DNA of 64,000 nucleotides from an uncultured Rikenellaceae bacterium (GCA_964429295.1 CAYSBL010000009.1:1448-65447); one strand, 5' to 3'; shown: positions 14,938-39,112, numbered from the stretch's first letter. A program made the numbers and translations. Notes: generated from the letters alone by a model not told the origin.

Positions 14938-15399
14938 ATGCCAGACAGAGCGATCATTAAAATCCTCACCGACAACAAGCTTAAAGTCACTCCCCAGAGA
15001 ACTGCCGTGCTCGAGGTGATCTGTAACCTGAACAACCACCCTTCCGCCGATAATATAATCGACTACCTGAGACTGAATTTCCCCCATATCCCCCTGAGCA
15101 CCGTCTATAAAATCCTTGACGTATTCGTGGAGAAAGGGATCGTTTCAAAAGTCAAAACTGATAATGATGTTATGCGTTATGACTTCGTCAGTGAGAAACA
15201 CCATCACCTGTATTGCGCCGAATCTGATCGTATCGAGGATTATTTCGACGAAAAACTTGATAAAATCATCGGGGATTACCTCCTGAAAAATCCGATCCCT
15301 GACTTCAGGATTAAGGATATAAGACTTCAGATTGTGGGAAACTTCACAAACAAGCCTGCAGAGTATTCAGTTTCAAATAAACTTTACTCTGTTGACTGA
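14938..15399 (+). CDS. Fur-family regulator, probably PerR-like
   Basis: LKVTPQR, HPSAD, STVYKIL, HHHLYC; directly upstream of a peroxiredoxin. Confidence 0.85.
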   Translation: MPDRAIIKILTDNKLKVTPQRTAVLEVICNLNNHPSADNIIDYLRLNFPHIPLSTVYKILDVFVEKGIVSKVKTDNDVMRYDFVSEKHHHLYCAESDRIEDYFDEKLDKIIGDYLLKNPIPDFRIKDIRLQIVGNFTNKPAEYSVSNKLYSVD

Positions 15400-15515
15400 T
15401 AATCCAAAAATGTGTTGTAAATTATATGGCGTTTTCTGGCGTATATCCCTGATCCTGAATATGACTCCTGAAAATTTAATTAAATCACTTTATTATTAAT
15501 ATAACAAAAATCATT

Positions 15516-19836: not shown

Positions 19837-20883
19837 TCATTTCTTACCTGTTCCATGCCGCTTCTTTCTCAAAGTCGATTCCCTTATAATCAGTTCATGT
19901 TTAACTATAATGGTGCTCAGGCTTGAGGCACCCTTGTTATGCAGGATGTTGATAAGCGAATTTGCCGCCAGACGTCCTATTTCACTTGCAGGATAATCAA
20001 CTGTTGTCAGACATGGCTTTATCACCCTGCTGACAGGTTCATTGTTAAAGCCTGCCACTGCAATGTCTTCGGGGATCCTCATTCCTGATTTCTGAAGTTC
20101 GCATATAGCCGCAACCGCAGACGTATCATTGGCGGTGAATATCCCGTCGGGAGGGTCTTTCATCCTCATAACAGCCCGTGCCGCCTCTATCCCTGCCTGG
20201 CTTCCAAGCTCGCTGACCATCAGCAGTTCATCGTCGAAAGGGATCCCGTTGTCGGCCAGGGCCTGCCGGTATCCCTCAAACCTTCCTGAATATACATTGC
20301 GCAGGAGATTCCCGCTCAGATGAAGTATACGTCTGCATCCCTGACTGATAAGATGGGATGTGACTTCATATCCGGCCCTGAAGTTGTCAATCACTATGCC
20401 CATGCATCCCGGACAATTCGATACGCGGTCGAAGAATACAACCGGTATGTTCTTCCTCAGGATCTGATTGAAGTGGTCAATATTCTCGGTGTCGTAGGCC
20501 AGGGAAACAAGCAGTCCGTCAACCCTGCTGTGAAAAAGTGTAGAAACGCAACCTGTCTCTTTCTTTCCGGATTCCTGCGACTGACTGATGATCAGCCCAT
20601 ATCCCTGCTGATTTGTTATTTCTTCCATACCCGCTATCACAGTAGCCATGAAATAACTGTTAAGCTTGGGAACCACCACCCCGATCGTTTCGGTACTCCT
20701 TTTCCTCAGACTGCTTGCAAACTTATTCTGCTGGTAGCCCATCTCCCTTGCCATTGCCTTTATTCTCTTCCTGGTATCGGCATGGATGTGCGGATGATCC
20801 TTTAATCCTCTGCTGACCGTCGAAGGAGATATGTTCAGTGCTTTTGCCACATCGTAAATAGTGACATCACGGGTGGTTTTCAT
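19837..20883 (-). CDS. LacI-family transcriptional regulator
   Basis: VTIYDVAKALNISPSTVSRGL HTH, hinge FASSLR, PVVFFDR, DIAVAGFNN, LTTVDYP. Start moved to ATG 20883; own TAAATTTG -7 box at 20902-20909 (minus). Confidence 0.95.
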   Translation of the reverse strand: MKTTRDVTIYDVAKALNISPSTVSRGLKDHPHIHADTRKRIKAMAREMGYQQNKFASSLRKRSTETIGVVVPKLNSYFMATVIAGMEEITNQQGYGLIISQSQESGKKETGCVSTLFHSRVDGLLVSLAYDTENIDHFNQILRKNIPVVFFDRVSNCPGCMGIVIDNFRAGYEVTSHLISQGCRRILHLSGNLLRNVYSGRFEGYRQALADNGIPFDDELLMVSELGSQAGIEAARAVMRMKDPPDGIFTANDTSAVAAICELQKSGMRIPEDIAVAGFNNEPVSRVIKPCLTTVDYPASEIGRLAANSLINILHNKGASSLSTIIVKHELIIRESTLRKKRHGTGKK

Positions 20884-20950
20884 TGTAGGAATTTGAATAA
20901 ACAAATTTAATATAAAATGACAGACAGTGAAAATATTTATAAAAAAACCC

Positions 20951-20989
20951 GCAATCGGTTGCATATTCTATAAAACATTTTTAATTTCG
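20951..20989 (+). promoter_or_regulatory. LacI operator copy 1 overlapping the promoter of the first DUF6807 gene
   Basis: GCAATCGGTTGC (20951-20962, reverse complement of GCAACCGATTGC); its TTG lies 20 nt upstream of TAATTTCG (20982-20989). Confidence 0.8.
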
Positions 20990-21038
20990 GAAGCCGGAAT
21001 GCCTGACCAACCGTAATTCTTTAATACCAGAACCGACC

Positions 21039-22310
21039 ATGAATGCTGTTATCACCAACTTCAGTAAAGCAAAATCAGCTGTCGCAGCTTTGCTTCTCCT
21101 GACCGGGACATTCTGCCACGCACAGAAGATTGCATCACTCGAAGTAAATCTGAACAAGCCTGCTTCGGGCCTGAAGATCCCCGTAAGCATCAACCTTGAT
21201 GAGATCACTTATCTTTCTGATACGCTGCTTGCACTGTACGAGACCAGCGACGGAAGAACGGAACCTGTTCCTTTTCAGATAGAACCGGGCAATCCGAGAA
21301 AAATGACATGGCTTGTCGTTTCCGGAAAAGAGGAGAATGAAAAGCACACCTATGCGCTGGAAAGCCAAAAGTCCATATTCCCGTTTACGGTGAATGCAAA
21401 GTTAAAGGATGGGACCCTGCTGATCCATTCGGGAGAAAAAAACCTGCTCCAGTATTTCTTCAAAACTGTCTATCCTCCTGCCGGAGTTGATACTGCCTAC
21501 AGAAGAAGCGGATTCATCCATCCGCTTTGGTCTCCCCATGGCCAGGAACTTACCCGTATCCAGCCTCCTGATCATTTTCATCATTATGGTATCTGGAATC
21601 CATGGACCATGGTGGAATTTGAAGGCGACACCCTCGATTTCTGGAATATAAACTCAAAACAGGCGACGGTGCGCTTCGCTAACTTCGTATCGGTGACGGG
21701 AGGACCCGTTTTCTCCGAGTTCGGAGCTCTCCATGAGCATGTCGTACTGAAAAAGACCGGGATAGACAAGGTGGCAATGAATGAGCTTCAGTGTGTAAGG
21801 GTATATGAACCCGACAAAAACAACGACTGCTTCATTGTTGATTTCAATATTAATATGAACTGCGCCGGTGAAAGCCCATTCAGGATCCTTGAATACCGTT
21901 ATGCCGGACTCGGATGGAGAACAACGCAGAAATGGGACAAAATGAACAGCATGGTTCTTACATCTGAAGGAAATGACAGAAAAAGCGCTGACGGCAGCAA
22001 AGCCAGGTGGTGCATCGTTCAGGGCGAGATTGACGACGACTACGCCGGTGTCGTGATGATGTCGTTCCCTACAAACTACAACCATCCCGAACCTCTGAGA
22101 ATATGGCCTGAGAACCAGTATAACCGGGGCGACATGTTTGCAAACTTCTGCCCTACAAAGGACATGGACTGGGATCTGATCCCGGGTAAAAACTACAACC
22201 TCAGGTACAGGTTTCTGGTTTTCAATGGCCGCTTCGATAAAGAAAAGGCAGAAAGTGCATGGAACTACTTCGCCAATCCGCCCGAAGTTACTGTCCGTAA
22301 GCTAAAGTAA
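21039..22310 (+). CDS. Secreted DUF6807 (PF14100, formerly mislabelled PmoA) protein with N-terminal extension
   Basis: Signal peptide; RSGFIHPLWSP..PDHFHHYGIW, YAGLGWR, HPEPLRIW motifs typical of this family (from memory, not a search). Confidence 0.75.
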   Translation: MNAVITNFSKAKSAVAALLLLTGTFCHAQKIASLEVNLNKPASGLKIPVSINLDEITYLSDTLLALYETSDGRTEPVPFQIEPGNPRKMTWLVVSGKEENEKHTYALESQKSIFPFTVNAKLKDGTLLIHSGEKNLLQYFFKTVYPPAGVDTAYRRSGFIHPLWSPHGQELTRIQPPDHFHHYGIWNPWTMVEFEGDTLDFWNINSKQATVRFANFVSVTGGPVFSEFGALHEHVVLKKTGIDKVAMNELQCVRVYEPDKNNDCFIVDFNINMNCAGESPFRILEYRYAGLGWRTTQKWDKMNSMVLTSEGNDRKSADGSKARWCIVQGEIDDDYAGVVMMSFPTNYNHPEPLRIWPENQYNRGDMFANFCPTKDMDWDLIPGKNYNLRYRFLVFNGRFDKEKAESAWNYFANPPEVTVRKLK

Positions 22311-22362
22311 GCAGTTGATTTGGTTTTTAAATAAATAAAGACTGCTTCCTTGAAAATCACTC

Positions 22363-22400
22363 GCAACCGATTGCACATTGAAAATGTTTTCATAAATTTG
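22363..22400 (+). promoter_or_regulatory. LacI operator copy 2 overlapping the susC promoter
   Basis: GCAACCGATTGC (22363-22374); its TTG lies 19 nt upstream of TAAATTTG (22393-22400). Confidence 0.85.
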
Positions 22401-22553
22401 GTATCAGCTAACCTGATTAATCTGATCATAAATTCAATTTATCAACCCTTTAATTCAATTTTATGAAACCCGCATGATAAAATAACAAACTGGAATGCAG
22501 TTATTTGAATCATGCAGGTTCCATGTGACCTTTAAAACCAAAACTATTTACAC

Positions 22554-25500
22554 ATGAAAAAACTTCTGCTGCTGATTTTGCTTGCCGGATTCACCATGAA
22601 TCTGGCGGCACAAAAAGTTGTTACCGGCAAGGTGACGGATGAAGAACAAAATCCTCTCGCCGGGGTCTCTGTGCAGGTTAAGGGAACTACCATCGGTACT
22701 CTGACAGATGCCGAAGGTAATTTCCGCCTTCAGATTCCCGTCGATGTAAGGATACTCTCCTTCTCGTTCATCGGGATGAAACCCCAGGAAATCGAGATAG
22801 GCACACAAACCAGTTTTAGTATTGTAATGCAGGTCGATGTCGGGATGCTTGAGGAAGTTATTGTTATCGGTTATGGTACCATAAAGAAAAAAGACCTGAC
22901 AGGCGCTGTCTCCAGGATTGATGCCAATGAACTGGCGACTGAAGCCACCTCAAATGTCACAACCATGCTCAGGGGAGCAATTCCAGGACTGGCTGTGAAC
23001 CTCAGCACGAGCGCCAAAGGCCTTAGCAGTTCAAGCGACATGCTTATCAGGGGAGAAACTTCACTCAGGGCCAGCGACTCAGATCAGGCAAATGCAAATG
23101 CCCCGCTGGTTGTGGTCGACGGAATGATCTACTACGGCGACCTGGCCGATATCAACCCGGTCGACATTGAAACCTTCGACATACTGAAGGATGCATCCTC
23201 GGCAGCAATCTACGGAGCCAGGGCAACCAACGGCGTTATCCTCATCACCACAAAAAGAGGACTGAAGGGTAAACCCGTTATCAACATCAGCACCAGCACA
23301 GGGATGGCATTCATTTCCCATGCTCATTACGAAATGATGAACGGCGATCAGCACATTGCCAGAAGGATTGCAGGTTTCGAGCAGAATGAACGCCGGCAGA
23401 TTACAATCGGTCAGGGCTATTACAACAGCTATGAAAACCTGCCATCCGGCGTGACTCTCGAACAGTGGAAAGCCTATGACGGATCAACCGCTGCAACCGA
23501 CCTCGATGAAGTGTGGCTTTCAAGGATCGGCTTTGCTCCTATAGAAATTAACAACTACAAGGCAGGCAGACTTACCGATTTCAAGCAATACACATGGCAG
23601 AACGGCCTTACCCAGGACTACAACCTGAGCCTTTCAGGAAGTTCCGACGCTGTGTCCTATTACTGGTCACTCGGCTACACCGACAATGAAGGAATAAGGT
23701 ACAATGAGGAATTCAGCACAATTCGTTCAAGGATCAATCTAGATGCCGACGTCACCAACTTCCTTAAGGTTGGCCTGAATGCCCAGATGGCCTTCCGCGA
23801 CGAAAGTCCCATCTCTCCCGGAACCAGTCTCTTCAATACTCCATATTCCTCAATGTTCCAGGAAGATGGTGTAACACTGGAACTTACCCCCTCCGGCTAT
23901 ATCAACGCTCCCAACTTCTGGCTTGAAATGAGGTTCCGCGACCGCTACCGGAAATACAACACACTGAACAGCAAAATATTCGCAACCATTACCCTGCCTC
24001 TTGGCTTCTCCTTCACCTCCGAATTCATACCCAGGTTCAACTGGAACCGCGATTACAACAGCTACTCTTCAGGCCACTTTGAGTGGGCATTGCAGGGCGG
24101 AAGAGCCTCGAGGGCAAATACCACAGTCTTCGAATGGCAGATCAACAACATGCTGAAATGGAACAAAACTATCGGAGATCATGCCTTCGATGCAACCTTC
24201 GTTCAGAACGCCGAGAAATATAATTACTGGTATGAATACATGGAAAGGCAGAACTTCCAGCCTTCCGACGTGCTGGGCTACCACAGGATGCAGGCTGCAA
24301 CAGAGGACGTTTCCCTTACCAGCAACGATGAAACCAGTACGGGCGATGCTCTCCTGGCACGATTGAATTACACATTCAAATCGAGGTATAATCTTACTGG
24401 ATCATTCCGCCGCGATGGCTATTCAGCCTTCGGACAGGCTAACCCAAGGGCCAATTTCTGGTCGGTGGCAGGAGGCTGGACAATCAGCGAGGAAGAATTC
24501 TTCAATATCGACTGGATCGACCAGCTTAAACTGAGATTGTCGTACGGCGTCAACGGAAACCGCGGTGTCGGAATCTATGATGCCCTCTCCAACCTTAACT
24601 CCGGCAAGTTCCTGCTGATTGAAGGCGGAGTTGAACAATACGTTTCACAGCTTTATACCAGCCGTATGGCAAATGCCAACCTGAAATGGGAACGCACATC
24701 AGCCTATAACGGAGGACTCGACTTTGCAGTGCTGAAAGGAAGACTCAGAGGTACTCTGGAGGCTTACTTCTCGATCACCGAAGACCTCATAATCCCGCGC
24801 CAGCTTCCCAATGTAACAGGTTATGCAAGCGTTTTCTCAAACCTGGGCCAGGTCAACAACAAGGGATTTGAATTTACCCTGAATTCAGTGAATATCTCAA
24901 CTCCTGATTTCACCTGGACTTCAGACTTCTCTGTATCACACAACAGCAATAAGATCGTTCATCTGTTCGGGGATTATGTGACAGACGAAGTAACGGGAGA
25001 ACAGAAGGAGGTTGACGATATCACCAATGAATGGTTCATTGGCCATGCAATTGATGAAGTGTGGGATTACAAAAGCCTTGGAATATGGCAGGTATCTGAA
25101 ACTGCGGAAGCCACCGCTTATTCCCGCTCACCCGGTGACTACAAGCTTCTCGATTTCAACGAAGACGGATACTACACCAATGACGACAAACAGTTCCTTG
25201 GCTTCAGAAGGCCTAGAGTAAGACTAAGCCTCAGGAATGACGTGCAGTACAAGAACTGGGAGTTATCGCTTAAAATGTACTCATATCTCGGGCATTTGAA
25301 AGCAGACAACTTCCTGAGAAACAATGAAGCATTCTACGACAGGGGAACCTATTACGATGTTCCATACTGGTCTGCCGATAATCCGGGCAACAAATGGGCA
25401 AGGGTAGAAAGCTACGAGACCAACTTCAATGTATGGGAGAAAAACTCATTCATAAGGCTCGATAATGTGTCGCTTTCATACAATATCCCCAGCAGGGTGC

Positions 25501-25646
25501 TGTCGAAGATTAAAGTAGTAAACTGCAGATTATCCCTGGTTGCCGACAACCCGCTTGTTTATGCTCCCTACTGGTCATGGATGGATCCGGAAAATGATTC
25601 CTATACACCTTCCTATATTTCATTCAAAGTAAACATCACCCTTTAA
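22554..25646 (+). CDS. susC: SusC/RagA TonB-dependent receptor
   Basis: Signal peptide, carboxypeptidase-regulatory-like N-domain, VIGYGT..KKDLTGAV, PLVVVDG, DIETFDILKDASSAAIYGARATNGVILITTK, LKWE. Confidence 0.97.
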   Translation: MKKLLLLILLAGFTMNLAAQKVVTGKVTDEEQNPLAGVSVQVKGTTIGTLTDAEGNFRLQIPVDVRILSFSFIGMKPQEIEIGTQTSFSIVMQVDVGMLEEVIVIGYGTIKKKDLTGAVSRIDANELATEATSNVTTMLRGAIPGLAVNLSTSAKGLSSSSDMLIRGETSLRASDSDQANANAPLVVVDGMIYYGDLADINPVDIETFDILKDASSAAIYGARATNGVILITTKRGLKGKPVINISTSTGMAFISHAHYEMMNGDQHIARRIAGFEQNERRQITIGQGYYNSYENLPSGVTLEQWKAYDGSTAATDLDEVWLSRIGFAPIEINNYKAGRLTDFKQYTWQNGLTQDYNLSLSGSSDAVSYYWSLGYTDNEGIRYNEEFSTIRSRINLDADVTNFLKVGLNAQMAFRDESPISPGTSLFNTPYSSMFQEDGVTLELTPSGYINAPNFWLEMRFRDRYRKYNTLNSKIFATITLPLGFSFTSEFIPRFNWNRDYNSYSSGHFEWALQGGRASRANTTVFEWQINNMLKWNKTIGDHAFDATFVQNAEKYNYWYEYMERQNFQPSDVLGYHRMQAATEDVSLTSNDETSTGDALLARLNYTFKSRYNLTGSFRRDGYSAFGQANPRANFWSVAGGWTISEEEFFNIDWIDQLKLRLSYGVNGNRGVGIYDALSNLNSGKFLLIEGGVEQYVSQLYTSRMANANLKWERTSAYNGGLDFAVLKGRLRGTLEAYFSITEDLIIPRQLPNVTGYASVFSNLGQVNNKGFEFTLNSVNISTPDFTWTSDFSVSHNSNKIVHLFGDYVTDEVTGEQKEVDDITNEWFIGHAIDEVWDYKSLGIWQVSETAEATAYSRSPGDYKLLDFNEDGYYTNDDKQFLGFRRPRVRLSLRNDVQYKNWELSLKMYSYLGHLKADNFLRNNEAFYDRGTYYDVPYWSADNPGNKWARVESYETNFNVWEKNSFIRLDNVSLSYNIPSRVLSKIKVVNCRLSLVADNPLVYAPYWSWMDPENDSYTPSYISFKVNITL

Positions 25647-25657
25647 AATTACCGGAC

Positions 25658-27535
25658 ATGAAAAAGATATTTTTAACGATAGTATTCCTGACAACTCTGG
25701 TTTTTATAGGTCCGAGGTGTTCCGAAGATTTTCTCAAACCTGAACCTTTATCATTCTATGCCCCTGAAAACACTTTTGTTAATGCCGCCGGATTCAATGC
25801 TGCGCTTATTGCATGCCTGCGAAATGCAAGGCATGAAATGTACGGAGATACTCCTCCCTTTATTTCAGAGGGTATCTTTTCAGACATAGCGGTGGAGGGC
25901 ACTACTGATAAAACCGGGATCCATATGGATATGCCGGCTGTAATACTGCCTGATGCAAACTTCAACTACGGCGACGTGACAAAGCTGGGCAACTACTGGA
26001 CCGAAGCCTACAACAGGATCAAGTATGCAAATGTGGTAATTTCAAGGATCGACAATGCAGAATGGAAAAGCGATGCCGAACGAAACAATATACTTGGCAA
26101 AGCTTACTTTCACAGGGCGAATGTCTATTACAGGCTTGTCCATCAGTTCGGCGATGTGCCTCTTATTCTTGAAGAGATAACCCAGCCAAGGCTGGATTTC
26201 TATTCCTGCACAAGGGAAAGTATACTCCAGAAATGCAAAAAGGACCTCGACTTTGCAGCCCAGTGGGTTGATGCCGATGCTCCCATCGGAGACATAAACA
26301 AGGCAGCCGTCAACCATCTTCTTACCAAGGTCAACATGTCGCTGCTGGAATTCGATGATGCCATAGCCTCCGCAAGCGCAGTCATAAATGACGGGATACA
26401 CGCCCTGATGACCACACGCTTCGGCTCGTACAAGAATGATCCGGCACACGACATTATCTGGGACCTTCACCAGGAGGAGAACAAGGCTCTCGCCGAAAAC
26501 ACTGAAACGATATGGCTGTTTGTATGCAGTGAGACAATGACTGAAGACGGTGCAAGCGAGAAACTCAGAATAATGCGACAGGCGGTTCCGTACTGGGGCG
26601 GCGCAGGAAAAGTAAAAACTCCTACAGGCCAGACGGGAACAACCGACCAGCCGGGAGGAGCTCTGGTGGGCGGATTTCCTGTTGAAATAAACCAGGTCGG
26701 TATGTATGGCAGAGGCATCGGACGTCTTCGCCCCAGCCCGTGGTACCAGCATGGCCTGTGGGATGATCCAAACGACATGCGTCATAAATATCCCAACTGG
26801 ATGAGGATGGAAGACCTGGTTTACAATGTCCCCGGACTGAAGGCAAACGGCGACCCGTACTACAACCAGCATCTGCAACTTTTCGATGCGGGAGGAGGAA
26901 TCCTGTGCACCGATACCATAAGATCATGGTTCGACTGGCCACATTATAAACTGTATGTAATCGACCCGACCGACAACACACCCGACGGTGGCTATGGCGA
27001 CTGGTACGAAATGCGGCTTGCAGAAACATACCTCCTGAGAGCCGAAGCCTATTTCTGGAACGATCAGCCTGATCAGGCGGCAGCCGATCTTAACGCAGTC
27101 AGGACACGTGCCGGATGTGCCCCCTATACAACCGACCAGATAAATATCGGTACCATCCTGGATGAAAGGGCCAGGGAACTGTATTACGAGGAGAAACGGA
27201 AAACAGAACTGACTCGTATTGCCTACATACTTGCAAAAACAGGAAAACCCTGTTATAACGGGAAAACATACAGTATGGGAAATTTCGGGACAGATAATTT
27301 CTGGTATGACAGGGTCATCGAAAAGAACGTCTTCTACAGGGATAATGTAAAGGCTCCGTTCTATAATTACCGGATAGCCCCGTATATTGTCCTTTGGCCC
27401 GTTCTCTCATCCGCAATAAATGCAAACAGCCTCGGACATATTAACCAGAATTTCGGATATCCGGGATATGAATCAAATGTTACTCCCTGGAAATGGGTCG
27501 ATGGAGAAGGCGAAGGATCTGTTGTTGAACAATGA
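25658..27535 (+). CDS. susD: SusD/RagB surface lipoprotein
   Basis: Cys after the signal peptide (RCSEDFL), FHRANVYYRLVHQFGDVPL, RLAETYLLRAEA, NAVRTRAG, ILDERARELYYE; follows susC. Confidence 0.96.
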   Translation: MKKIFLTIVFLTTLVFIGPRCSEDFLKPEPLSFYAPENTFVNAAGFNAALIACLRNARHEMYGDTPPFISEGIFSDIAVEGTTDKTGIHMDMPAVILPDANFNYGDVTKLGNYWTEAYNRIKYANVVISRIDNAEWKSDAERNNILGKAYFHRANVYYRLVHQFGDVPLILEEITQPRLDFYSCTRESILQKCKKDLDFAAQWVDADAPIGDINKAAVNHLLTKVNMSLLEFDDAIASASAVINDGIHALMTTRFGSYKNDPAHDIIWDLHQEENKALAENTETIWLFVCSETMTEDGASEKLRIMRQAVPYWGGAGKVKTPTGQTGTTDQPGGALVGGFPVEINQVGMYGRGIGRLRPSPWYQHGLWDDPNDMRHKYPNWMRMEDLVYNVPGLKANGDPYYNQHLQLFDAGGGILCTDTIRSWFDWPHYKLYVIDPTDNTPDGGYGDWYEMRLAETYLLRAEAYFWNDQPDQAAADLNAVRTRAGCAPYTTDQINIGTILDERARELYYEEKRKTELTRIAYILAKTGKPCYNGKTYSMGNFGTDNFWYDRVIEKNVFYRDNVKAPFYNYRIAPYIVLWPVLSSAINANSLGHINQNFGYPGYESNVTPWKWVDGEGEGSVVEQ

Positions 27536-27648
27536 ACTTAAAATGATTTAAGAAACAACTGTTTCCTTTAATCAATATTGATCCTAATATTTATCTTTAT
27601 GATTCAGAACAACTGTGTTTCTTAAAACCTCAAAATGATTATGGTCAT

Positions 27649-27681
27649 CCCCCCGGATGGAATGTCAGATCCACCGGGGGG
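27649..27681 (+). other. GC-rich stem-loop after susD (mRNA stabilising or attenuating)
   Basis: CCCCCCGG-A-TGGA-(8 nt)-TCCA-CCGGGGGG with no U-tract. Confidence 0.65.
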
Positions 27682-27720
27682 CAATACCAGTTGACAGACA
27701 AAAACCAAAAAAGGAAATAA

Positions 27721-29094
27721 ATGAAAAGACGAATTTTCATCTCCAGGACTGCTCAGGCTGCAGCAGGATCGCTGATTCTGCCGACTATAGTTCCCTCTTC
27801 GGTTATAGGCAGGAATCCCCCAAGCGAAAAGATCAACATAGGATGGATAGGCTGCGGGAGGCAGGGAAGAGGCGATATCATGGGTACTATGAGATTCGAC
27901 ACTGCTATGGTGGTAGCCGCTGCCGATGTAGATTCTAAAAGGGTGGCCCTTGGCAAGCAGATGGTAGAAGGCTTCTATTCAAAGAAGACAGGAAACAGCA
28001 ATTATGTCAATGTAAAAACATACGGCGACTACAAGGAACTGCTGCTCGACAAATCGATAGATGCGGTAGTGATTACCACACCCGACCACTGGCACTCACA
28101 GCCCGCCATCGAAGCTGCACTTGCCGGCAAGGATATCTATCTTGAAAAACCTACTTCGCTTACCATTACCGAAGGAAGGCTTCTGAGCGATGTGGTTAAG
28201 AAAACAAAGGTCATCCTGCAGGTTGGAACCCAGCAGCGCTCAAGTCCTCAGTGGAGGATCGCCGCCGAACTGGTCAGGAACGGAAGAATAGGCAAGCTTC
28301 ATACTGTCAAAATTGGTCTGCCCGGGGACCCGGCCGGACCGGAGGCCCCTGAAATGCCGGTTCCGCCTAACCTCAATTACGACATGTGGCTGGGATCAAC
28401 ACCCGAAGTCTATTACACCGAAATCCGCGTCCATCCTCAGAAGGATTTCGATCGCCCGGGCTGGCTGAGATGTGAGCAATTTGGCGCCGGCATGATCACA
28501 GGCTGGGGACAGCATCACTTCGACTCGGCTGCCTGGGGCATGGATACAGAACTCACCGGACCGGTATCGATCGAGGCAGTGGCTCAATTTCCCAAAGCCG
28601 GACTGTGGGATGTTCACGGCGATTTTATGTCAATAGCAGAATACGCCAACGGGGTGACACAGCTTACAAGCGGAAGTTATCCCAACGGAGTAAGATATGA
28701 AGGAACAGAGGGATGGATCTTTGTAACACGAGGTAACTACAGGGCTACCGACAGTGATCCGATAGTCCAGGCTCAAAACACCAAAGCACTCGATGCCAGC
28801 GATCCAAAGATCCTTACTTCAGTGATCGGACCCAACGAGATCCACCTCTATGAAAGCAGTGACCAGGCAGGCAACTGGCTCGACTGTATTAAATCGAGAA
28901 AGGAACCCATCTCACCGGTTGAAATCGGCCACAGGGCCTGCACGGTATGTCTTGTCACCCATATAGCAATGAAACTGGGAAGAAGACTGAAATGGAATCC
29001 TGAAACTGAAAAGTTTGTGGGCGACGATGAGGCCAACAGCATGCTTTCAAGGCCACAGAGAGCCCCCTACGGCACAAATTACATCAAATTGTAG
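27721..29094 (+). CDS. Tat-exported Gfo/Idh/MocA oxidoreductase
   Basis: KRRIF twin-arginine signal, IGCGRQG Rossmann motif, TPDHWH, YLEKP, QVGTQQRS. Confidence 0.92.
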   Translation: MKRRIFISRTAQAAAGSLILPTIVPSSVIGRNPPSEKINIGWIGCGRQGRGDIMGTMRFDTAMVVAAADVDSKRVALGKQMVEGFYSKKTGNSNYVNVKTYGDYKELLLDKSIDAVVITTPDHWHSQPAIEAALAGKDIYLEKPTSLTITEGRLLSDVVKKTKVILQVGTQQRSSPQWRIAAELVRNGRIGKLHTVKIGLPGDPAGPEAPEMPVPPNLNYDMWLGSTPEVYYTEIRVHPQKDFDRPGWLRCEQFGAGMITGWGQHHFDSAAWGMDTELTGPVSIEAVAQFPKAGLWDVHGDFMSIAEYANGVTQLTSGSYPNGVRYEGTEGWIFVTRGNYRATDSDPIVQAQNTKALDASDPKILTSVIGPNEIHLYESSDQAGNWLDCIKSRKEPISPVEIGHRACTVCLVTHIAMKLGRRLKWNPETEKFVGDDEANSMLSRPQRAPYGTNYIKL

Positions 29095-29209
29095 GTTTTA
29101 ATTTAAGGGACCCGCATGCACCTCAAGACTCATTTTTGAATGGGATTGTATTGTGCATGCGGGTTTTCTTTCCTGACAGATCAAGAAACAGTTCAACAAA
29201 CACAAAGTA

Positions 29210-30118
29210 ATGAAAAGACTTATAAGCGGCACCCTCGCAATCCTGGCGGGAAGCTTTTTAATCATGCCTGTATCCGCCGCCAGACTCACAGCAGAGAAAA
29301 CAGGTTCCAAAATCAATGTGAGCATCGACGGAAAATTCTTCACCAGCTACATCTTCACGGAAGATGAGAAATACCCCTTCTTCTATCCGGTCAACGGACC
29401 GGTCACCGGAGGCTCGGTAACATCCATGAGAAATGCAGTTTACCCCCACCATACATCCCTTTTCTTCGGATGCGACATGGTTAACGGGGGAAATTACTGG
29501 CAGGAAGGACTTGACCGGGGCAGAATAATCTCGGTGAATGCCCGGATTGAAAAAGAAGGAGGCGATACTGTTGTTATAACAGACGAATGCATATGGAGCC
29601 GCCCGGGTGCAGTCTCGCCCATGAAGGACACACGCAGGTACATAATAACCGCACCATCGGCAGACAAAATTGTCATTGACGTCGAGATCACCATGATGAC
29701 ACTGATGGATGTCCGCATCAGGAAAACAAACCACTCACTTTTCAGCGCCAGGCTGGCAGCCGACATCTCGGTTACCAACGGAGGCACCATGATAAACGCC
29801 GAGGGGGCAAGCAGCGAAAAGGATACTTTCGGAAAGAGATCCCCCTGGATCGACTTCAGCGGCTCAAGAGGAAATACAATTGAAGGTCTTGCCATTATGC
29901 AGCATCCTTCAAATCCCTGGTACCCGGCCCCCTGGTTCACACGCGATTACGGATTCATCTCCCCCACACCGATGTACTGGCCTGAAAATGGTGAAGAGAC
30001 TTTTATTAAGGACGGAACCAGACTGGTTCTTAAGTACAGGGTTATTGTCCATTCAGGCGACCATAAACAGGCTGATATAGCCGGCGAGTTCAAAAAATAC
30101 ATTTCCGGTACGTTATAA
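29210..30118 (+). CDS. Secreted DUF6807 protein (second paralog)
   Basis: Signal peptide; KYPFFYPV, YPHHTSLFFG, HPSNPWYPAPWFTRDYG. Confidence 0.75.
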   Translation: MKRLISGTLAILAGSFLIMPVSAARLTAEKTGSKINVSIDGKFFTSYIFTEDEKYPFFYPVNGPVTGGSVTSMRNAVYPHHTSLFFGCDMVNGGNYWQEGLDRGRIISVNARIEKEGGDTVVITDECIWSRPGAVSPMKDTRRYIITAPSADKIVIDVEITMMTLMDVRIRKTNHSLFSARLAADISVTNGGTMINAEGASSEKDTFGKRSPWIDFSGSRGNTIEGLAIMQHPSNPWYPAPWFTRDYGFISPTPMYWPENGEETFIKDGTRLVLKYRVIVHSGDHKQADIAGEFKKYISGTL

Positions 30119-30148
30119 CATTGTTATAACATCTTCAGAGGAAGGATT

Positions 30149-30197
30149 TGAGGCGTGAGGCGTGAGGTGTGAGGCGTGAGGCATGAGGCGTGAGGCG
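30149..30197. repeat. Heptamer tandem array (TGAGGCG)x7 with two variant units
   Basis: Read directly; lies between convergent operons. Confidence 0.95.
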
Positions 30198-30206
30198 TTG
30201 ACCTGA

Positions 30207-30893
30207 CTAATGGGTTTTTCTATAAAGGCAGTCTGTCCTGTGGCATGAAATGCAAGGAAAAGGATCAAAGCTTACATTCCTTCCAATACCTATCATCCCG
30301 CTTACCGATTTTTCAGGACGCATTAAAGCCGAGTCATTAAGGCTTATCCCGCAGTTATTATCGGGCATCAGCCTGAACAGGGCATGCTGATCAGAAACAT
30401 CCCACCCGCAATATCCTGGACTGTAGCGGTTTGTAACCTTGTTGCCGGATTCCCCGGCAGCTTTGCTTACTTCCTGCAGGAGCAGGCCGGATGCTCTTTC
30501 CGCAATCTCACTTCCGATAATATCGTAGATGTAAGAAGCAAGCGGATCGCCGTCCTCCATCGACTTCCCCGCGAGTTTTTCAGTACCGGGACCTGCAGTG
30601 CAAAGGAAAATGGCGATGGATTCTGCCAGGCTGAGCTGTTTGAAAACAATGTCTTTAAGATTGAATACAACATCGCTCAATGTGACTGTTTTTTCTTCAT
30701 CATTCCATTCCCCGACGGGAAAGACCCTATACTCAGCTTTTACAGTGCATACCCGGGAAGCATTATTCAGCAGTTCCGTTATCAATCCTGAAAATTCATG
30801 ATGAGGATAACCGTCCCTCTCCGCCAGAACCCGGCCGATGCGGTTCTCATCGACCCCAAGATCCGAAAAATCATATTCCAGAGAAGTAATCAT
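30207..30893 (-). CDS. Stand-alone MetH reactivation-domain-like protein
   Basis: FLCTAG, RYSPGYCGW, M.PEKSVSGMIG and C-terminal CxxCxxxxCxYR; ATGA overlap with the upstream gene. Confidence 0.8.
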   Translation of the reverse strand: MITSLEYDFSDLGVDENRIGRVLAERDGYPHHEFSGLITELLNNASRVCTVKAEYRVFPVGEWNDEEKTVTLSDVVFNLKDIVFKQLSLAESIAIFLCTAGPGTEKLAGKSMEDGDPLASYIYDIIGSEIAERASGLLLQEVSKAAGESGNKVTNRYSPGYCGWDVSDQHALFRLMPDNNCGISLNDSALMRPEKSVSGMIGIGRNVSFDPFPCISCHRTDCLYRKTH

Positions 30894-32332
30894 GACTGAT
30901 CAAGTCCCGCTTCACGTACAATCCGTCCCACTACTTCTTCCCATCCGAGCGACATCAGGTGTACGCCGTTGATCCCCTTTTTTTGTTTCAGCGATGCGAT
31001 AAGTTCGAGAGCTATTGCAATTCCTTCCTCACTGGCGCCGTCGCCCGCCTTCTCCATTCTCCTGAGTATCCTGTCAGGCAGATATACTCCGGGAACCTTT
31101 TCATGCAGATAAAGAGCAGCCTTATAACTTTTAAGCGGAACCAGTCCGGCCAGGATGCTTACCTTGCCGAGCACATTCCTCCTGTCGAGCTGCTCCAGCC
31201 AGGGATCGAGCTTTTCCGGTTCGAAAATTATGTTGGTCTGGAAAAACTGTGCTCCCGCGTTTATTTTTTTCTGATCCCTTATTGCCTGGAGTTCAGGATC
31301 GAGTGCGCAAGGAGTGGTGGCAGCTCCAAGAAAGTACTTCGGAGGATGTTTCATCTTTCTCCCGTCGAGGTAGATTCCCTCGTCCCTCATTTTCCTGAGT
31401 ATCCAGAGCATCTGGACCGAATCGAGGTCATATATGTTCATATTACTGGCAGGGGGTGGTCCGACAACCGGACTGTCGCCGGTGACACAAAGAATGTTCC
31501 TGATCCCGAACTGACCCGCAGCTATGGCATCTCCCTGCAATGAGATGCGTGTTGCATCGCGGGCTGCAATCTGAAAGACCGGCTCTGCATTCATATCAGC
31601 GGCAACCTTGCAGCAGGCGAGTGCCGACATCTTCGGAATGGCCGACGAAGCATCCGTGAAATTTATGGCGTTAACATAGGGTCTGACAAGGTCAATGTCA
31701 TTCTTTAGTTTCCCGGAATCCGAACTAAGCGGCGGTGTGACTTCAGTGGCAACCACGAAACGGCCTTCCCTCAGAGATCTCTCGAGCTCCGACGCAGGCT
31801 CAGTATAGGCCGGAGGATGGTAATCTGAATCGCCGTTCCACCATGCAGGCTGCCTGACTGTCATGAATACCGAGTCCCATACCTGTTTTTTAGCTTCCCT
31901 GTCGTGCGAAAACAAAGATCTGAAAAATCTTCCGGGTCCCACTATTCCTATCTGTCTGCCTACATCCGCCCATGTTTCGGTACCGGCCCTGTTCCAGTCG
32001 AGCGGAGGAAGAACCTCGAGGAGTGTCTCCTGGCGCTTGATCTTCCTTGCCCGGTTATAGATGGCATGCCACACGCATCTTCGTGTCGGATCGACATAAC
32101 AGCGGCCTTCGGGAGTAACTCCGCCGCAGGGCCCGTTCCTGAGCCCTTTCGGACACTCCATACAACAGATAAAGGCTGTTTCCTGCAGAAGGCAGTTGCC
32201 GCACATCCTGCATCCCCAAATCGGACCTTTTACAATTATCTCTATATACTCACGGAACCGTTTCCCTAAAGACTCCCTTTTGAACGGATAAAAACGGGGT
32301 TGCCAACGGCGGGCAGGCTTGATACCAGACAT
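30890..32332 (-). CDS. metF: MetV-MetF fusion methylenetetrahydrofolate reductase
   Basis: Cys-rich N-domain CRMCGNC..CPKGLRNGPCGG..CYVDPTRRCVW (MetV/MTHFR_C type), followed by a MetF barrel (TEVTPP, NFTD, NILCVTGD, AGAQFFQT). Confidence 0.88.
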   Translation of the reverse strand: MSGIKPARRWQPRFYPFKRESLGKRFREYIEIIVKGPIWGCRMCGNCLLQETAFICCMECPKGLRNGPCGGVTPEGRCYVDPTRRCVWHAIYNRARKIKRQETLLEVLPPLDWNRAGTETWADVGRQIGIVGPGRFFRSLFSHDREAKKQVWDSVFMTVRQPAWWNGDSDYHPPAYTEPASELERSLREGRFVVATEVTPPLSSDSGKLKNDIDLVRPYVNAINFTDASSAIPKMSALACCKVAADMNAEPVFQIAARDATRISLQGDAIAAGQFGIRNILCVTGDSPVVGPPPASNMNIYDLDSVQMLWILRKMRDEGIYLDGRKMKHPPKYFLGAATTPCALDPELQAIRDQKKINAGAQFFQTNIIFEPEKLDPWLEQLDRRNVLGKVSILAGLVPLKSYKAALYLHEKVPGVYLPDRILRRMEKAGDGASEEGIAIALELIASLKQKKGINGVHLMSLGWEEVVGRIVREAGLDQS

Positions 32333-32364
32333 ATCCAGAGGTATTAATTCTTAAGGGAAGGTAC

Positions 32365-33207
32365 TCAGGAATTGCGGCTTTGATAATATTCCACAAACCT
32401 TATTGCAAAGTCGTCCCTCCCCAGAACAAGATCGGCAGCCCGGGCAGCAGCAGTTATTTTTTCAGGATTTGCTATCGGGCATGTAACTCCGCAATAAACG
32501 GCAAGAGTCAGGAAAGCCGTGTTGAGCGACTCCCTGTCGGGCAGACCGAATGATATGTTACTGGCCCCCATGGTTATATTCTGACCAAGCTTCCGGTTAA
32601 CCAGCCTGATAGTTTCCAGCGTCACCAGGCAGGCCCGGGGATCGGCGCTGACTGCCATGGCCAGAGGATCGGCAATGACATCTTCAGCCTTCATTCCCGC
32701 TGAAACAGCCCTTTCAATTATCCTTTCAATTATTGCCACACGCTTTTCGGGATCATTGGTGATACCGTCATCATCCATGCATAATCCTATAATGGCCGCT
32801 CCGTATTCGCTTGCAAAAGGGATCAGGGCCTTAAGGGATTCTTCCTTCCCGTTAACCGAATTGATAAGGCATCTCCCGGCGGAAACCTTAAGTGCAGCTT
32901 CAATGGCTGAAGGATTGGGAGAATCGAGACACAGCGGGATATCAAAGTTATCCTGGATAGCCGACACAACTTCCGGAAGAAGCTTCACATCATCAACACC
33001 CGGATAACCCACATTTACGTCGAGAACATCGGCACCTGCATTTATCTGGCTGGCCGCCAGTTCAAGAACATAGGAAAAATCTCCCTCCTGAAGCGATGAA
33101 ACCAGTTTCTTACGGCGGGTCGGGTTTATCGATTCGCCAATAATAACAACAGGACCACCGGTTTCAATGACAACCTCCCTGGTCCTGCCTGATAGTAATG
33201 TCTTCAT
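32365..33207 (-). CDS. Pterin-binding methyltetrahydrofolate:corrinoid methyltransferase (AcsE / MetH pterin module)
   Basis: IIGESINPT, QINAGADVLDVNVG, LCLDS, LINSVNG, GASNISFGLP motifs. Confidence 0.9.
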   Translation of the reverse strand: MKTLLSGRTREVVIETGGPVVIIGESINPTRRKKLVSSLQEGDFSYVLELAASQINAGADVLDVNVGYPGVDDVKLLPEVVSAIQDNFDIPLCLDSPNPSAIEAALKVSAGRCLINSVNGKEESLKALIPFASEYGAAIIGLCMDDDGITNDPEKRVAIIERIIERAVSAGMKAEDVIADPLAMAVSADPRACLVTLETIRLVNRKLGQNITMGASNISFGLPDRESLNTAFLTLAVYCGVTCPIANPEKITAAARAADLVLGRDDFAIRFVEYYQSRNS

Positions 33208-33209
33208 GA

Positions 33210-33878
33210 TTAAACTGCAAACTGTTTCAGATAATTAACTGCACCCTGGGGATCGGGTGAATAGAAATCGGCTCCTATCTTTTCGCAATATTCCATCGTA
33301 ACCGGAGCTCCGCCGACAAGGATCCTGACCGCGGGATGCTTCTCCTTCAGAACTGCAACGGTTTTCTTCATATTTTCCATAGTGGTGGTGAGAAGAGCGG
33401 ACAGACCTACAAAAGCGCCCGGATTGTTCTCAATAGCTTTCAGAAATTTATCGGTGCTCACATCAACACCCAGGTCGATGATCTCCCATCCGCCTCCTTC
33501 TATCATCATCGAGACCAGGTTCTTCCCTATGTCGTGAAGGTCACCCGCTACGGTGCCAATGATAAATTTTCCCTTTCGCTTTGTCTCGCCCGACTGAAAG
33601 AACGGCTTCAGATGCTTCATCGAGCTGTTCATGGCCTTGGCTGCCATCAGCATCTGGGGAACATATATCTCCTTCCTGCTGAACCTCTCACCAACAACTG
33701 CCATCGCCGGGATCAGGGCTTCGTCGAGAATCCTGGCCGGACCAAGCCCATTGTCGATAGCCTGCCTGGTTAGCTCATCCGCTCCATCACTCCCCCTCAT
33801 GTCGGGCGGGTAAGGTGAAGCCTTGTCTGTTTTGCCTGACTCAACACATCGTGCGATCCGGGCCAGTATATCTTCCAT
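33210..33878 (-). CDS. Corrinoid (B12-binding) methyl-carrier protein
   Basis: Cap domain (LIPAMAVVGERF..YVPQMLMAAKAM), DLHDIGKN (DxHxxG), LSALLTTTM, VGGAPV. Confidence 0.94.
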   Translation of the reverse strand: MEDILARIARCVESGKTDKASPYPPDMRGSDGADELTRQAIDNGLGPARILDEALIPAMAVVGERFSRKEIYVPQMLMAAKAMNSSMKHLKPFFQSGETKRKGKFIIGTVAGDLHDIGKNLVSMMIEGGGWEIIDLGVDVSTDKFLKAIENNPGAFVGLSALLTTTMENMKKTVAVLKEKHPAVRILVGGAPVTMEYCEKIGADFYSPDPQGAVNYLKQFAV

Positions 33879-33946
33879 AAAACTACAGATTGATGAAGTT
33901 ACCTGTTATAACCTTTAAGCTTTTTACTGCACGAAAATAATAAATT

Positions 33947-33985
33947 CAAAAGTAATTAATATAATTTGTTTATGCAACCGATTGC
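33947..33985 (-). promoter_or_regulatory. LacI operator copy 3 overlapping the promoter of the corrinoid operon
   Basis: GCAACCGATTGC (33974-33985). On the minus strand its TTG (33977-33975) lies 20 nt upstream of a perfect TACTTTTG -7 box (33954-33947). Confidence 0.85.
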
Positions 33986-34040
33986 AGAAATGTTTTTATT
34001 AAAGATTTTAACGCTGCCGATCTGTCTCCTTACTATAACA

Positions 34041-34117
34041 CCCCCTTTCCCGTTTCCCCCAGGGGGGAAAGGCTTTGCCTGCTCCTTCCCCCCTGGGGGA
34101 AGGTCAGGGAAGGGGGT
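34041..34117. repeat. GC-rich REP-like double-hairpin element, copy 1
   Basis: CCCCCTTTCCCGTTTCCCCCAGGGGGGAAA ... CCTTCCCCCCTGGGGGAAGGTCAGGGAAGGGGG; related to 41859-41992. Confidence 0.8.
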
Positions 34118-34225
34118 AAAGCACACAACCGGGGAAAGGAATAAAACAGGTTTGAATTGAATTCAGAATGTAATACAAGTGACGCCTTAAAAATTATTAT
34201 CTTGCCCTCATATATAACCAAAGAT

Positions 34226-39068: not shown

Positions 39069-39112
39069 AATTGCGGTTTTTGTCGTAATAGCTTTACATT
39101 TACTTGATTCCA

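Follow-up and report, generated by a model that had tools for sequence, protein, structure and literature searches.

A LacI-type operator shared by a SusCD locus and a corrinoid/tetrahydrofolate methyl-transfer operon in an uncultured Rikenellaceae bacterium: a probable xylan regulon

Sugar repressors of the LacI family, including those encoded next to xylB, xylA and a Na+/sugar symporter in other Bacteroidota, combine a helix-turn-helix (HTH) with a periplasmic-binding-protein fold and use a 14-bp operator fitting TGnAAnCGnTTnCA, which occurs in the regulator's own upstream region as well as on the target promoters, with xylB and xylA as core targets. The usual regulators of polysaccharide-utilisation loci (PULs) are hybrid two-component systems, SusR-type proteins or extracytoplasmic function (ECF) sigma factors, not LacI-type proteins. 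In the corrinoid O-demethylases of Moorella (MtvABC), Acetobacterium dehalogenans (Odm) and Desulfitobacterium hafniense DCB-2, a corrinoid protein with a DxHxxG motif works together with a pterin-binding methyl-corrinoid:tetrahydrofolate (THF) methyltransferase, and the methyl group ends up on THF. The features named for both kinds of system are also present in a stretch of 64,000 nt from an uncultured Rikenellaceae bacterium (GCA_964429295.1 CAYSBL010000009.1:1448-65447), which will be referred to as the window and in whose positions all coordinates are given. Here we report that one LacI-type operator recurs in the window next to lacI, in front of a susC gene and in front of a four-gene corrinoid/THF methyl-transfer operon, that these units very probably belong to one regulon, and that the methyl group handled by the operon might be derived from xylan.

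A sequence-only reading of this DNA had reported an identical 12-mer at three intergenic sites. Matching of GCAACCGATTGC against the window yielded exactly three zero-mismatch sites, all intergenic and located where they had been placed, whereas by calculation any given 12-mer should turn up exactly by chance about 0.008 times in 128 kb (both strands). With one flanking base on each side, the sites O1 to O3 read CGCAATCGGTTGCA, CGCAACCGATTGCA and TGCAACCGATTGCA, and represent a CG-centred 14-bp near-palindrome, TGCAAYCGRTTGCA, agreeing with the LacI-family form except that the first T is replaced by C at O1 and O2. O1 (20951-20962; 12-mer on the minus strand, GCAATCGGTTGC on the plus strand) is located between the start of lacI (20883, minus strand) and the start of the first of two DUF6807 genes (DUF6807-1, 21039). 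O2 (22363-22374, 12-mer on the plus strand) lies between the end of DUF6807-1 (22310) and the start of susC (22554), and O3 (33974-33985, 12-mer on the plus strand) between the start of the corrinoid protein gene (33878, minus strand), 96 nt upstream of its ATG, and a divergent PD40/Tricorn-like gene.

The consensus of Bacteroides promoters is TTTG-N19-21-TAnnTTTG. Direct reading of the sequence demonstrated a perfect -33/-7 match at two of the promoters: the susC -7 box TAAATTTG (22393-22400, plus strand) follows the TTG of O2 (22371-22373) by 19 nt, and the -7 box of the corrinoid operon, TACTTTTG (33947-33954, minus strand), follows the TTG of O3 (33977-33975) by 20 nt. At both, the operator overlaps the -33 TTG and is thus predicted to be placed such that a bound repressor would occlude the promoter. 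The earlier proposal that one half-site TTG lies on the -33 element, 19-20 nt ahead of a TAnnTTTG-type -7 box, therefore stands for susC and the corrinoid operon, and for DUF6807-1 only with one mismatch in its -7-like box TAATTTCG (20982-20989, plus strand, 20 nt after the O1 TTG at 20959-20961). The lacI promoter, with its -7 box TAAATTTG at 20902-20909 (minus strand), has O1 42 nt upstream and consequently off its -33 element. A sigma-70 promoter scan of the window returned as many matches as shuffled sequence, the sigma-70 model being uninformative for Bacteroidetes. Control of the corrinoid operon by a riboswitch was considered and rejected, as Rfam detected only a tRNA in the window and neither a SAM nor a cobalamin riboswitch, and as the predicted 5' untranslated region comprises only about 60 nt. 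A GC-rich nested palindrome is located between O3 and the PD40/Tricorn-like gene (34040-34120; -64 kcal/mol, z = -4.5 against shuffles), and a related copy is present in the DUF2961/DcuC intergenic region (41961-41980); both look like a REP-type repeated extragenic element.

Among the species-representative genomes scanned, 525 stretches matched the search pattern, 482 of which encode a relative of the pterin methyltransferase. For comparison we used 80 loci from such genomes (1.25 Mb), anchored on the pterin methyltransferase by ortholog alignment (73-94% identity) and annotated by BLAST against a reference set derived from the window and four loci, with Pfam spot checks. All 80 are metagenome-assembled genomes (MAGs) of Bacteroidales from fens, peat, soils, sediments and digesters. 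Searches with the genes at the edges of the window yielded only contigs of 6 kb. The operator core GCAAYCGRTTGC occurs 75 times in this set, compared to 0.3 expected occurrences, and 73 of the sites are intergenic, so that the motif is indeed conserved upstream of orthologous operons. These sites precede the corrinoid protein gene (43), susC (16), lacI (10), the GFO/IDH/MocA oxidoreductase gene (GFO; 5), DUF6807-1 (4), GH115 (3) and xylB (1), a site between divergent genes being assigned to both. The flanking T and A of the 14-bp operator are present at 89% of the 75 sites. The 43 corrinoid protein promoters all differ in sequence, with TGCAATCGGTTGCA and TAnnTTTG as the only conserved elements in a column-wise information profile; the operators are mostly 48-130 nt upstream of the start of the gene. 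Spacing between the operator TTG and TAnnTTTG is 18-20 nt in 39 of these 43 promoters and 19-20 nt in 13 of the 16 susC promoters. In front of lacI, the operator is found 41-44 nt upstream of the -7 box in nine of ten relatives, as in the window. Orthologs of O1 were detected in six loci (L001, L002, L003, L017, L054, L067), and the first loci fetched around LacI orthologs likewise showed the identical 12-mer between lacI and DUF6807-1 and upstream of susC.

The presence of the operator follows that of the regulator. All 13 loci that hold lacI carry the operator, and 11 of 15 loci with xylB in which lacI is missing from its usual place have none (Fisher p = 7e-5, not corrected for phylogeny). 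Since the site is palindromic, is kept at the same promoters while the flanks diverge, and co-occurs with lacI, it behaves as a LacI operator, as the earlier reading had suggested from its CG-centred form and the adjacent lacI gene. We consider it strongly supported by these sequence comparisons that the shared site is the operator of the adjacent LacI. In several species (L035, L041, L058, L064, L065, L069, L082, L085 and others), lacI is missing between DUF6807-1/GFO and xylB and all operators are lost, with the corrinoid operon still beside xylB and xylA. A scan of metagenome contigs for the operator plus -7 box returned at least 120 stretches; the matches listed include sites at corrinoid protein, susC, GH10, GH67 and lacI genes, together with sites of paralogous regulators at kduI and xylBA and with chance matches.

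The regulator (19837-20883, minus strand, 348 aa) carries a LacI HTH (PF00356) at its N-terminus and a type I periplasmic-binding-protein effector domain (PF00532, PF13377, PF13407; Pfam Peripla_BP_1, _3 and _4). It is followed on the same strand by xylB for an FGGY-family xylulokinase (18257-19735; FGGY_N, FGGY_C) and xylA for xylose isomerase (16841-18166; TIGR02630, 657.6 bits compared to a cut-off of 533), after which a terminator-like hairpin is found at 16794-16773. This lacI-xylB-xylA unit had been overlooked in the earlier reading. xylB is flanked by lacI and xylA in the window as well as in L001-L004, and because the three genes form one unit headed by lacI, we regard the regulator as XylR-like. 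Orthologs with 65-92% identity are common among uncultured Bacteroidales MAGs. On metagenome contigs of other Bacteroidota, paralogs with the same operator core adjoin xylB-xylA-SSS (Na+/solute symporter; about 52% identity) or kduI and kduD (about 40% identity). These findings argue that the regulator is a member of a Bacteroidota LacI subfamily for xylose and uronate-derived sugars, with xylose-operon regulators as nearest relatives, and suggest xylose or a xylan oligosaccharide as effector. The contigs in which the GCAAYCGRTTGC core with a -7 box stands before kduI(-kduD) or xylB-xylA-SSS next to LacI paralogs of 40-53% identity are L108, L127, L136, L144, L158, L159, L162, L193, L198; L132, L146, L196. 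One operator type appears to serve the whole subfamily, and cross-talk between paralogs within one genome is possible.

Other regulators are encoded nearby. An arabinose cluster (309-4976) consists of araD, an NrtR/Nudix-type AraR regulator, araA and an SSF transporter; within the same genome, arabinose is accordingly assigned to a Bacteroides-type NrtR regulator and xylose to a LacI-type one. The xylose operon is further flanked by a Fur-family regulator and several peroxiredoxins (AhpC/TSA; 14938-16223, 11604-12146, 47169-47915). L002 and L003 additionally contain a catalase, a ferritin-family (Dps-like) gene and OsmC at this place, representing an oxidative-stress island syntenic with the regulon in these anaerobes.

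The corrinoid operon runs on the minus strand from 33878 and converges on the plus-strand genes of the susCD arm. Its first gene encodes a corrinoid protein of 222 aa (33210-33878; B12-binding_2, PF02607, and B12-binding, PF02310) with DxHxxG present as DLHDIG. Its scores with the MtgC-type and pyl_corrinoid models of NCBIfam exceed that with metH, and its structural matches 1Y80, 7XCN and 4JGI rank ahead of MetH. The second product is a pterin-binding methyl-corrinoid:THF methyltransferase of the MeTr/MT2 type (32365-33207, 280 aa; PRK07535, 263.7 bits compared to a cut-off of 259), with 4O0Q (E 2e-39), 4O1E and 4O1F and the MeTr structures 2E7F and 1F6Y as best PDB matches, again all ahead of MetH. 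We take 4O0Q/4O1E/4O1F and 4JGI to be components of the O-demethylase system of D. hafniense DCB-2. The third gene (30890-32332, 480 aa) encodes a fusion of the MetV-like, Cys-rich DUF5981 with a methylene-THF reductase (MTHFR), the MTHFR model being covered in full length (PDB 6FNU). The last product (30207-30893, 228 aa) is a MetH-type reactivation domain protein (Met_synt_B12; 1J6R, E 1e-4) that binds S-adenosylmethionine (AdoMet) in such proteins through RxxxGY, here RYSPGY. None of the four proteins has a signal sequence. Among the structures just named, 4O1E and 4O1F carry methyl-THF and THF and have been used to model a THF methyltransferase (PMC13222342).

By their domains, the four genes form a module for methyl transfer from corrinoid to THF with its own repair and with an enzyme joining methyl-THF to the one-carbon (C1) pool. 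Since both core proteins score better with catabolic corrinoid systems, we assign the operon to the catabolic methyl-transfer type rather than to MetH, whose pterin, B12 and AdoMet-activation modules are nevertheless all present. The homocysteine-binding S-methyltransferase module (PF02574) is absent from every scanned open reading frame (ORF) of at least 150 aa in the window, the unscanned ones overlapping longer annotated genes, and was not detected in the 80 partly annotated loci. A RamA/RACo gene for a reductive activator of the RACE/RamA type was not found in the window, which has the MetH-type AdoMet domain instead. Diverging from the operon in the window and in most relatives is the gene of an exported PD40/Tricorn-like beta-propeller (34226-35749, plus strand), and the operator is part of its upstream region too (33 loci).

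The link to xylan became apparent from the relatives. Gene order varies among the 80 species; nevertheless, the four corrinoid genes stay with xylan genes. In 33 of the 51 loci of at least 15 kb, the corrinoid genes have GH10, GH67, GH115, CE15, xylA, xylB or lacI at a distance of no more than 10 kb. Most of the other loci of this length end in a susCD arm like that of the window, with lacI just beyond the flank, and only L034 and L088 show a clearly different context, with an AraC-type regulator upstream. In L036, genes for an ECF sigma factor, an anti-sigma factor, SusC, SusD and GH10 are followed on one strand by the operator, the corrinoid protein, methyltransferase and MTHFR genes, GH3 and CE15 (Pfam GCE_fung, E 2e-29), with gaps of only 24 and 8 nt after the MTHFR gene. 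In L080, 19 nt separate the end of GH10 from the corrinoid protein gene. The activation-domain gene is succeeded on its strand by xylB-xylA in L078, L082, L083 and L085, and in L027, L030, L048, L084 and L086 a cluster that includes the corrinoid genes is headed by a susC with the operator upstream of it. GH67 follows lacI in L002, L003 and L008, and GH115 is found beside lacI in L004. GH67 and GH115 enzymes release (4-O-methyl-)glucuronic acid from xylan, and CE15 enzymes cleave its esters. As these accessory enzymes are specific for the 4-O-methyl-glucuronic acid side chain, 4-O-methyl-glucuronate appears to be the best candidate substrate.

These loci also bear on several further claims of the sequence-only reading. 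All its gene identities (LacI, two DUF6807 proteins, SusC, SusD, GFO, B12-binding protein, pterin methyltransferase, DUF5981 plus MTHFR, Met_synt_B12) were confirmed by Pfam. Its description of a SusCD locus free of hydrolases holds for the window and its closest relatives and not for the other relatives, which carry GH10, GH3, GH67, GH115 and CE15. The regulatory link had been said to be invisible from gene order; in other species it is visible, for instance where GH10, the corrinoid protein, methyltransferase and MTHFR genes, GH3 and CE15 share one strand. The idea of an O-methylated sugar as substrate was reinforced, since 4-O-methyl-glucuronate, its first candidate, fits the presence of GH67, GH115, CE15, GH10, GH3 and xylB/xylA in the same regulon or cluster.

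Two further observations concern the variability of these loci. ECF sigma/anti-sigma (FecR) pairs precede the xylan susC in L036-L038 and L080 (about 350-2520), with the LacI operator upstream of the sigma gene; this would represent two layers of control on one PUL. In L004 (1-2960), fragments of a type I restriction enzyme gene replace the corrinoid operon, leaving only a truncated activation-domain gene (184 aa) beside DUF6807-2.

In the window, the susCD arm is made up of plus-strand genes. DUF6807-1 (21039-22310, 423 aa; PF14100, E 6e-63) carries a signal peptide and is predicted to be exported. It is followed by the adjacent susC/susD pair characteristic of a PUL (22554-27535), consisting of a SusC-like TonB-dependent transporter (22554-25646; CarbopepD_reg_2, Plug) and a SusD-like binding lipoprotein (25658-27535; SusD_RagB, SusD-like_3). 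The GFO oxidoreductase assigned by Pfam (27721-29094) has a twin-arginine signal (N-terminus MKRRIFISRTAQAAAG) and should thus be periplasmic; its nearest named family is that of the BT_2158 glycoside 3-dehydrogenases (NF058561), with 130.9 bits well below the cut-off of 750. The arm ends with DUF6807-2 (29210-30118, 302 aa; PF14100, E 1e-58), again with a signal peptide. Because all three carry export signals, GFO and both DUF6807 proteins are predicted to act outside the cytoplasm. Exported GFO and DUF6807 are the most constant neighbours of the corrinoid operon (45 of 51 loci). No relatives of DUF6807 were found in the PDB by sequence, and an AlphaFold2 model from a two-row alignment had a mean predicted local distance difference test score of 33.5, too low to be used. 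Pfam detected no glycoside hydrolase between 20951 and 33985, so that the carbohydrate-active enzymes expected to be co-localised in a PUL are missing in the window; in relatives they are present as GH10, GH3, GH67, GH115 and CE15. Genes for DUF2961, a GFO oxidoreductase and a xylose-isomerase-like TIM barrel (38172-41749, minus strand) form a second possible set for oxidative glycoside processing; many relatives have it in synteny, and it has no operator. A third GFO gene adjoins GH116 (54058-58253), also without operator.

We propose the following model. Without inducer, the LacI repressor bound at the -33 region would block initiation. A xylan-derived sugar, candidates being xylose or a xylo- or aldouronic oligosaccharide, would release it and simultaneously switch on import, periplasmic processing, xylose catabolism and the methyl-transfer operon. 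The donor of the O-methyl group to the cytoplasmic corrinoid module would be a compound derived from xylan, most probably 4-O-methyl-glucuronate or an aldouronate bearing it. The methyl group would then be carried as methyl-Co(III) on the corrinoid protein and passed to THF by the pterin methyltransferase. Oxidation of methyl-THF by MTHFR would supply methylene-THF to be either oxidised to formate or assimilated, and the AdoMet-binding domain would re-methylate oxidised corrinoid. As a result, glucuronate would be freed for ordinary uronate catabolism and the C1 unit harvested without oxygen. The regulatory part of this model appears well supported and the biochemical part moderately so. We hold a regulon under the shared operator to be very probable. 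Towards the complete mechanism, a xylose/xylan-induced module passing the O-methyl group of xylan, probably that of 4-O-methyl-glucuronate, via cobalamin to THF, we lean only narrowly, because no gene was found for the step from sugar to corrinoid and no precedent for its chemistry is known to us beyond methanol activation.

Several findings weigh against this proposal. The transfer from a methylated sugar to the corrinoid lacks a supporting gene: no candidate for the substrate:corrinoid methyltransferase (MT1), be it of the URO-D, MtaB or MttB type or another conserved protein of unknown function, lies within 10 kb of any of the approximately 78 xylan-type operons, and no methyltransferase target was seen behind the operator among the metagenome matches listed. 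To our knowledge, corrinoid O-demethylases act on aryl methyl ethers and not on sugar alkyl ethers, which offer a poorer leaving group, and we know of no precedent for attack of cob(I)alamin on an alkyl methyl ether beyond the activation of methanol by MtaB. Three of the four operon proteins match MetH modules, only the homocysteine module being missing. On the regulatory side, all comparison genomes belong to one Bacteroidales clade, so that the counts lack independence and the adjacency is in part a matter of shared synteny, and approximately 11 of 73 species with the operon have no recognisable operator. Autoregulation of lacI is also uncertain and less clear than repression at the other two promoters, since O1 does not lie on the lacI -33 element (42 nt from the -7 box).

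Pfam analysis of the ORFs of the window likewise yielded no MT1. Clustering of all ORFs without annotation in the 80 loci (120 aa or longer) gave recurrent clusters, of which those examined held no methyltransferase candidate; they represent a prolyl oligopeptidase-like protein, another GFO, CE15, SusD, a FecR-type anti-sigma factor and, in a smaller cluster, what looks like the adjacent ECF sigma factor. DUF6807-1, DUF6807-2 and GFO were rejected as MT1 on account of their export signals. As no MT1 was recognised in the window or in the approximately 78 xylan-type loci, the system is not classed as a complete O-demethylase, and MT1 must lie elsewhere in the genome or belong to an unrecognised family. 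The MtaA/CmuA/UroD-like methyltransferase that the earlier reading had predicted was accordingly not found in any xylan-type locus, and URO-D genes were found in variant loci only (L088, L089, L024).

In two of these variants (L088, 6701-16032; L089, 1-12833), the orthologous operons additionally contain genes for a URO-D-family methyltransferase and a formate-THF ligase, and a second URO-D gene is located beside GH123/DUF5107 or beside GH38, an MFS transporter and a RACo fragment, the latter in L089. In L024 (17-9170), the operon is preceded by GH29, GH95 and a fragment resembling URO-D, and another Bacteroidales contig (P0286) has the order act-UROD-UROD-CP-GH13-GH127-S-methyl_trans, where CP denotes the corrinoid protein. 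tblastn with the two URO-D proteins of L088 gave matches only in L088, L089 and L090, plus the fragment in L024. The contexts of these homologs show no LacI operator, and that in L090 is unrelated to glycans. As a further point against the proposed demethylation, the homologs seem much rarer than the operon, with identity falling to 56% within the best 120 matches compared to 78% for the pterin methyltransferase. In Acetobacterium dehalogenans, the chloromethane dehalogenase/methyltransferase CdmBCA consists of a URO-D-family MT1 (CdmB), a corrinoid protein and a THF methyltransferase (PMC13222342). Because CdmB is such an enzyme (PMC13222342), URO-D-family proteins can be MT1, and we propose this function for the URO-D genes of L088 and L089. 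Corrinoid genes for methyl transfer next to glycosidases seem to form a more general pattern, and under the demethylation hypothesis the URO-D loci beside GH123, GH38, GH29, GH95, GH13 and GH127 could be modules for other methylated sugars. Tentatively, we extend this to a scheme that we rate as possible and somewhat short of probable: anaerobic Bacteroidales might perform oxygen-independent, B12-dependent sugar O-demethylation in which a common hub of corrinoid protein, MeTr-type methyltransferase, MetVF-type MTHFR and reactivation protein yields methyl-THF. It would be fed by substrate-specific MT1 enzymes scattered among glycan loci (URO-D beside GH123, GH38, GH29 and GH95, another one for 4-O-methyl-glucuronate), and the LacI operator would wire the hub into the xylan regulon.

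Alternative explanations differ mainly in the origin and fate of the methyl group. The operon could encode a split cobalamin-dependent methionine synthase with MetF, in which methyl-THF would pass its methyl group via the corrinoid protein to homocysteine by a methyltransferase encoded elsewhere, the position in the xylose regulon being incidental or serving to balance C1 units. B12-binding, pterin-binding and AdoMet reactivation are MetH modules, the reactivation protein resembles the stand-alone Thermotoga protein 1J6R, metA (HTS) is located 11 kb away (44857-45777), and the act-UROD-UROD-CP contig does carry an S-methyl_trans gene. We nevertheless consider this unlikely: a homocysteine-binding domain was found neither in the window nor in the 80 partly annotated loci, the window has no SAM riboswitch, and both core proteins score better with catabolic systems. 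Repressing methionine synthesis whenever xylan is absent would also make little physiological sense, the genes lie between GH10 and GH3/CE15 in some species, and variant operons carry URO-D and formate-THF ligase genes. No more probable in our judgement is the demethylation of methoxylated aromatics attached to xylan, such as ferulate of feruloylated arabinoxylan or lignin fragments from lignin-carbohydrate esters, by classical aryl O-demethylase chemistry. For such a reaction there is precedent, CE15 glucuronoyl esterases, which cleave lignin-glucuronoxylan esters, are part of the cluster, and 4O0Q/4O1E/4O1F and 4JGI are among the structures to which the pterin methyltransferase and the corrinoid protein are most closely related; for D. 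hafniense, a cobalamin-binding protein from a putative O-demethylase has been described (PMC3727330). However, no aryl-type MT1 was seen in the 80 loci, and their partial annotation turned up neither a feruloyl esterase nor an aromatic transporter. The specific accessory enzymes are the α-glucuronidases GH67 and GH115, pointing to the uronic acid side chain, and in the variant loci the companions of URO-D are glycosidases and sugar transporters instead of aromatic genes.

Methanol might also be the methyl source, if it were released in the periplasm from a methyl ether or ester by GFO/DUF6807 or CE15 and captured by the cytoplasmic corrinoid system. CE15 enzymes hydrolyse methyl esters of glucuronic acid in vitro, and the constancy of exported GFO and DUF6807 beside the operon (45 of 51 loci) would fit; yet capture would need an MT1 just as 4-O-methyl-glucuronate demethylation does, and the absence of an MtaB-type methanol:corrinoid methyltransferase from the window and the loci makes this route very improbable. 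Finally, the three sites might not be a functional operator for this LacI, with the adjacency of the operons being inherited synteny. The restriction of the comparison genomes to one clade would allow this, and since other LacI paralogs use the same core upstream of kduI and xylBA in other Bacteroidota, another regulator could bind. We regard it as extremely unlikely, given 75 matches compared to 0.3 expected (73 intergenic), an operator and -7 box kept while the flanks diverged, and the loss of the motif together with lacI; against synteny, the operons have remained linked even where the gene order was rearranged in several different ways.

The main side chain of many xylans, among them that of hardwood, is 4-O-methyl-glucuronic acid, whose methyl ether should prevent degradation by the ordinary uronate pathway. 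In full-text literature searches, no connection of corrinoid proteins with PULs, or with 4-O-methyl-glucuronic acid and its demethylation, came up, and no paper on how anaerobes remove the 4-O-methyl group was found; the only carbohydrate demethylases returned were aerobic cytochrome P450 enzymes, which act on 6-O-methyl-D-galactose in marine Bacteroidetes (PMC6292453). If the proposed mechanism is true, a B12/folate module in the xylan regulon fills this gap in anaerobic 4-O-methyl-glucuronate demethylation. Sugars would then join aryl ethers as substrates of corrinoid O-demethylation, fermentative Bacteroidota would join acetogens as its hosts, and hemicellulose breakdown would be tied to B12 availability and C1 flux in peat, soil, sediment and digester communities. 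Should the hub scheme hold as well, hemicellulose methoxyls would be a direct source of C1 units and energy in anoxic soils, peat, sediments and digesters, where complete xylan use would depend on B12.

Compared to known systems, the LacI operator, the corrinoid/THF module and the xylan PUL are each of a known kind. What we did not find described is their combination, one LacI operator placed on the -33 element over a PUL and a B12 operon, and the anaerobic sugar demethylation that it implies. With MetH, including the split Thermotoga maritima form with its stand-alone activation protein (1J6R), the operon shares the pterin, B12 and AdoMet reactivation modules and keeps RxxxGY, but it lacks the homocysteine-binding module, resembles MetH less than catabolic systems and is under a sugar repressor. 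From the corrinoid O-demethylases it differs in that no MT1 is encoded at the locus, the MetH-type AdoMet domain replaces the ATP-dependent RACE/RamA protein and a MetVF-type MTHFR is part of the operon; moreover, its host is a fermentative Bacteroidales member and not an acetogen or organohalide respirer, its genes lie inside a glycan-utilisation regulon, and its proposed substrate is a sugar alkyl methyl ether instead of an aryl one. CdmBCA (PMC13222342) acts on another substrate, has no link to glycan genes and belongs to a member of the Bacillota. The type 1 mlp clusters of Kountz and Balskus (PMC10418091) were rejected as a match, as they are defined by the lack of a THF methyltransferase. 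The P450 demethylases (PMC6292453) share the proposed role, in that a sugar from a polysaccharide is relieved of an O-methyl group standing in the way of its catabolism, and their genes also lie alongside polysaccharide-utilisation genes. They are of unrelated protein families, however, and are oxygen-dependent and oxidative with formaldehyde as product, whereas the system proposed here would be oxygen-independent and dependent on B12 and THF, the methyl group being kept as methyl-THF.

Xylan PULs of Bacteroides and Prevotella are generally known to combine SusCD with GH10, GH3/GH43, GH67, GH115 and esterases, and the loci of the relatives hold this enzyme set together with SusCD; in contrast to those PULs, they include corrinoid/THF genes and the exported GFO and DUF6807 pair and are predicted to be under LacI-type repression, with the locus of the window containing no glycoside hydrolase. 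Relative to other LacI-family repressors, the regulon extends to a SusCD locus, to exported GFO/DUF6807 proteins and to a corrinoid/THF operon, and its operator is placed on the Bacteroidetes -33 element, not on a sigma-70 -35/-10 pair. The regulatory finding stands on its own, as a clean case of a LacI-type operator on the Bacteroidetes -33 element and of a PUL that is probably controlled by LacI.

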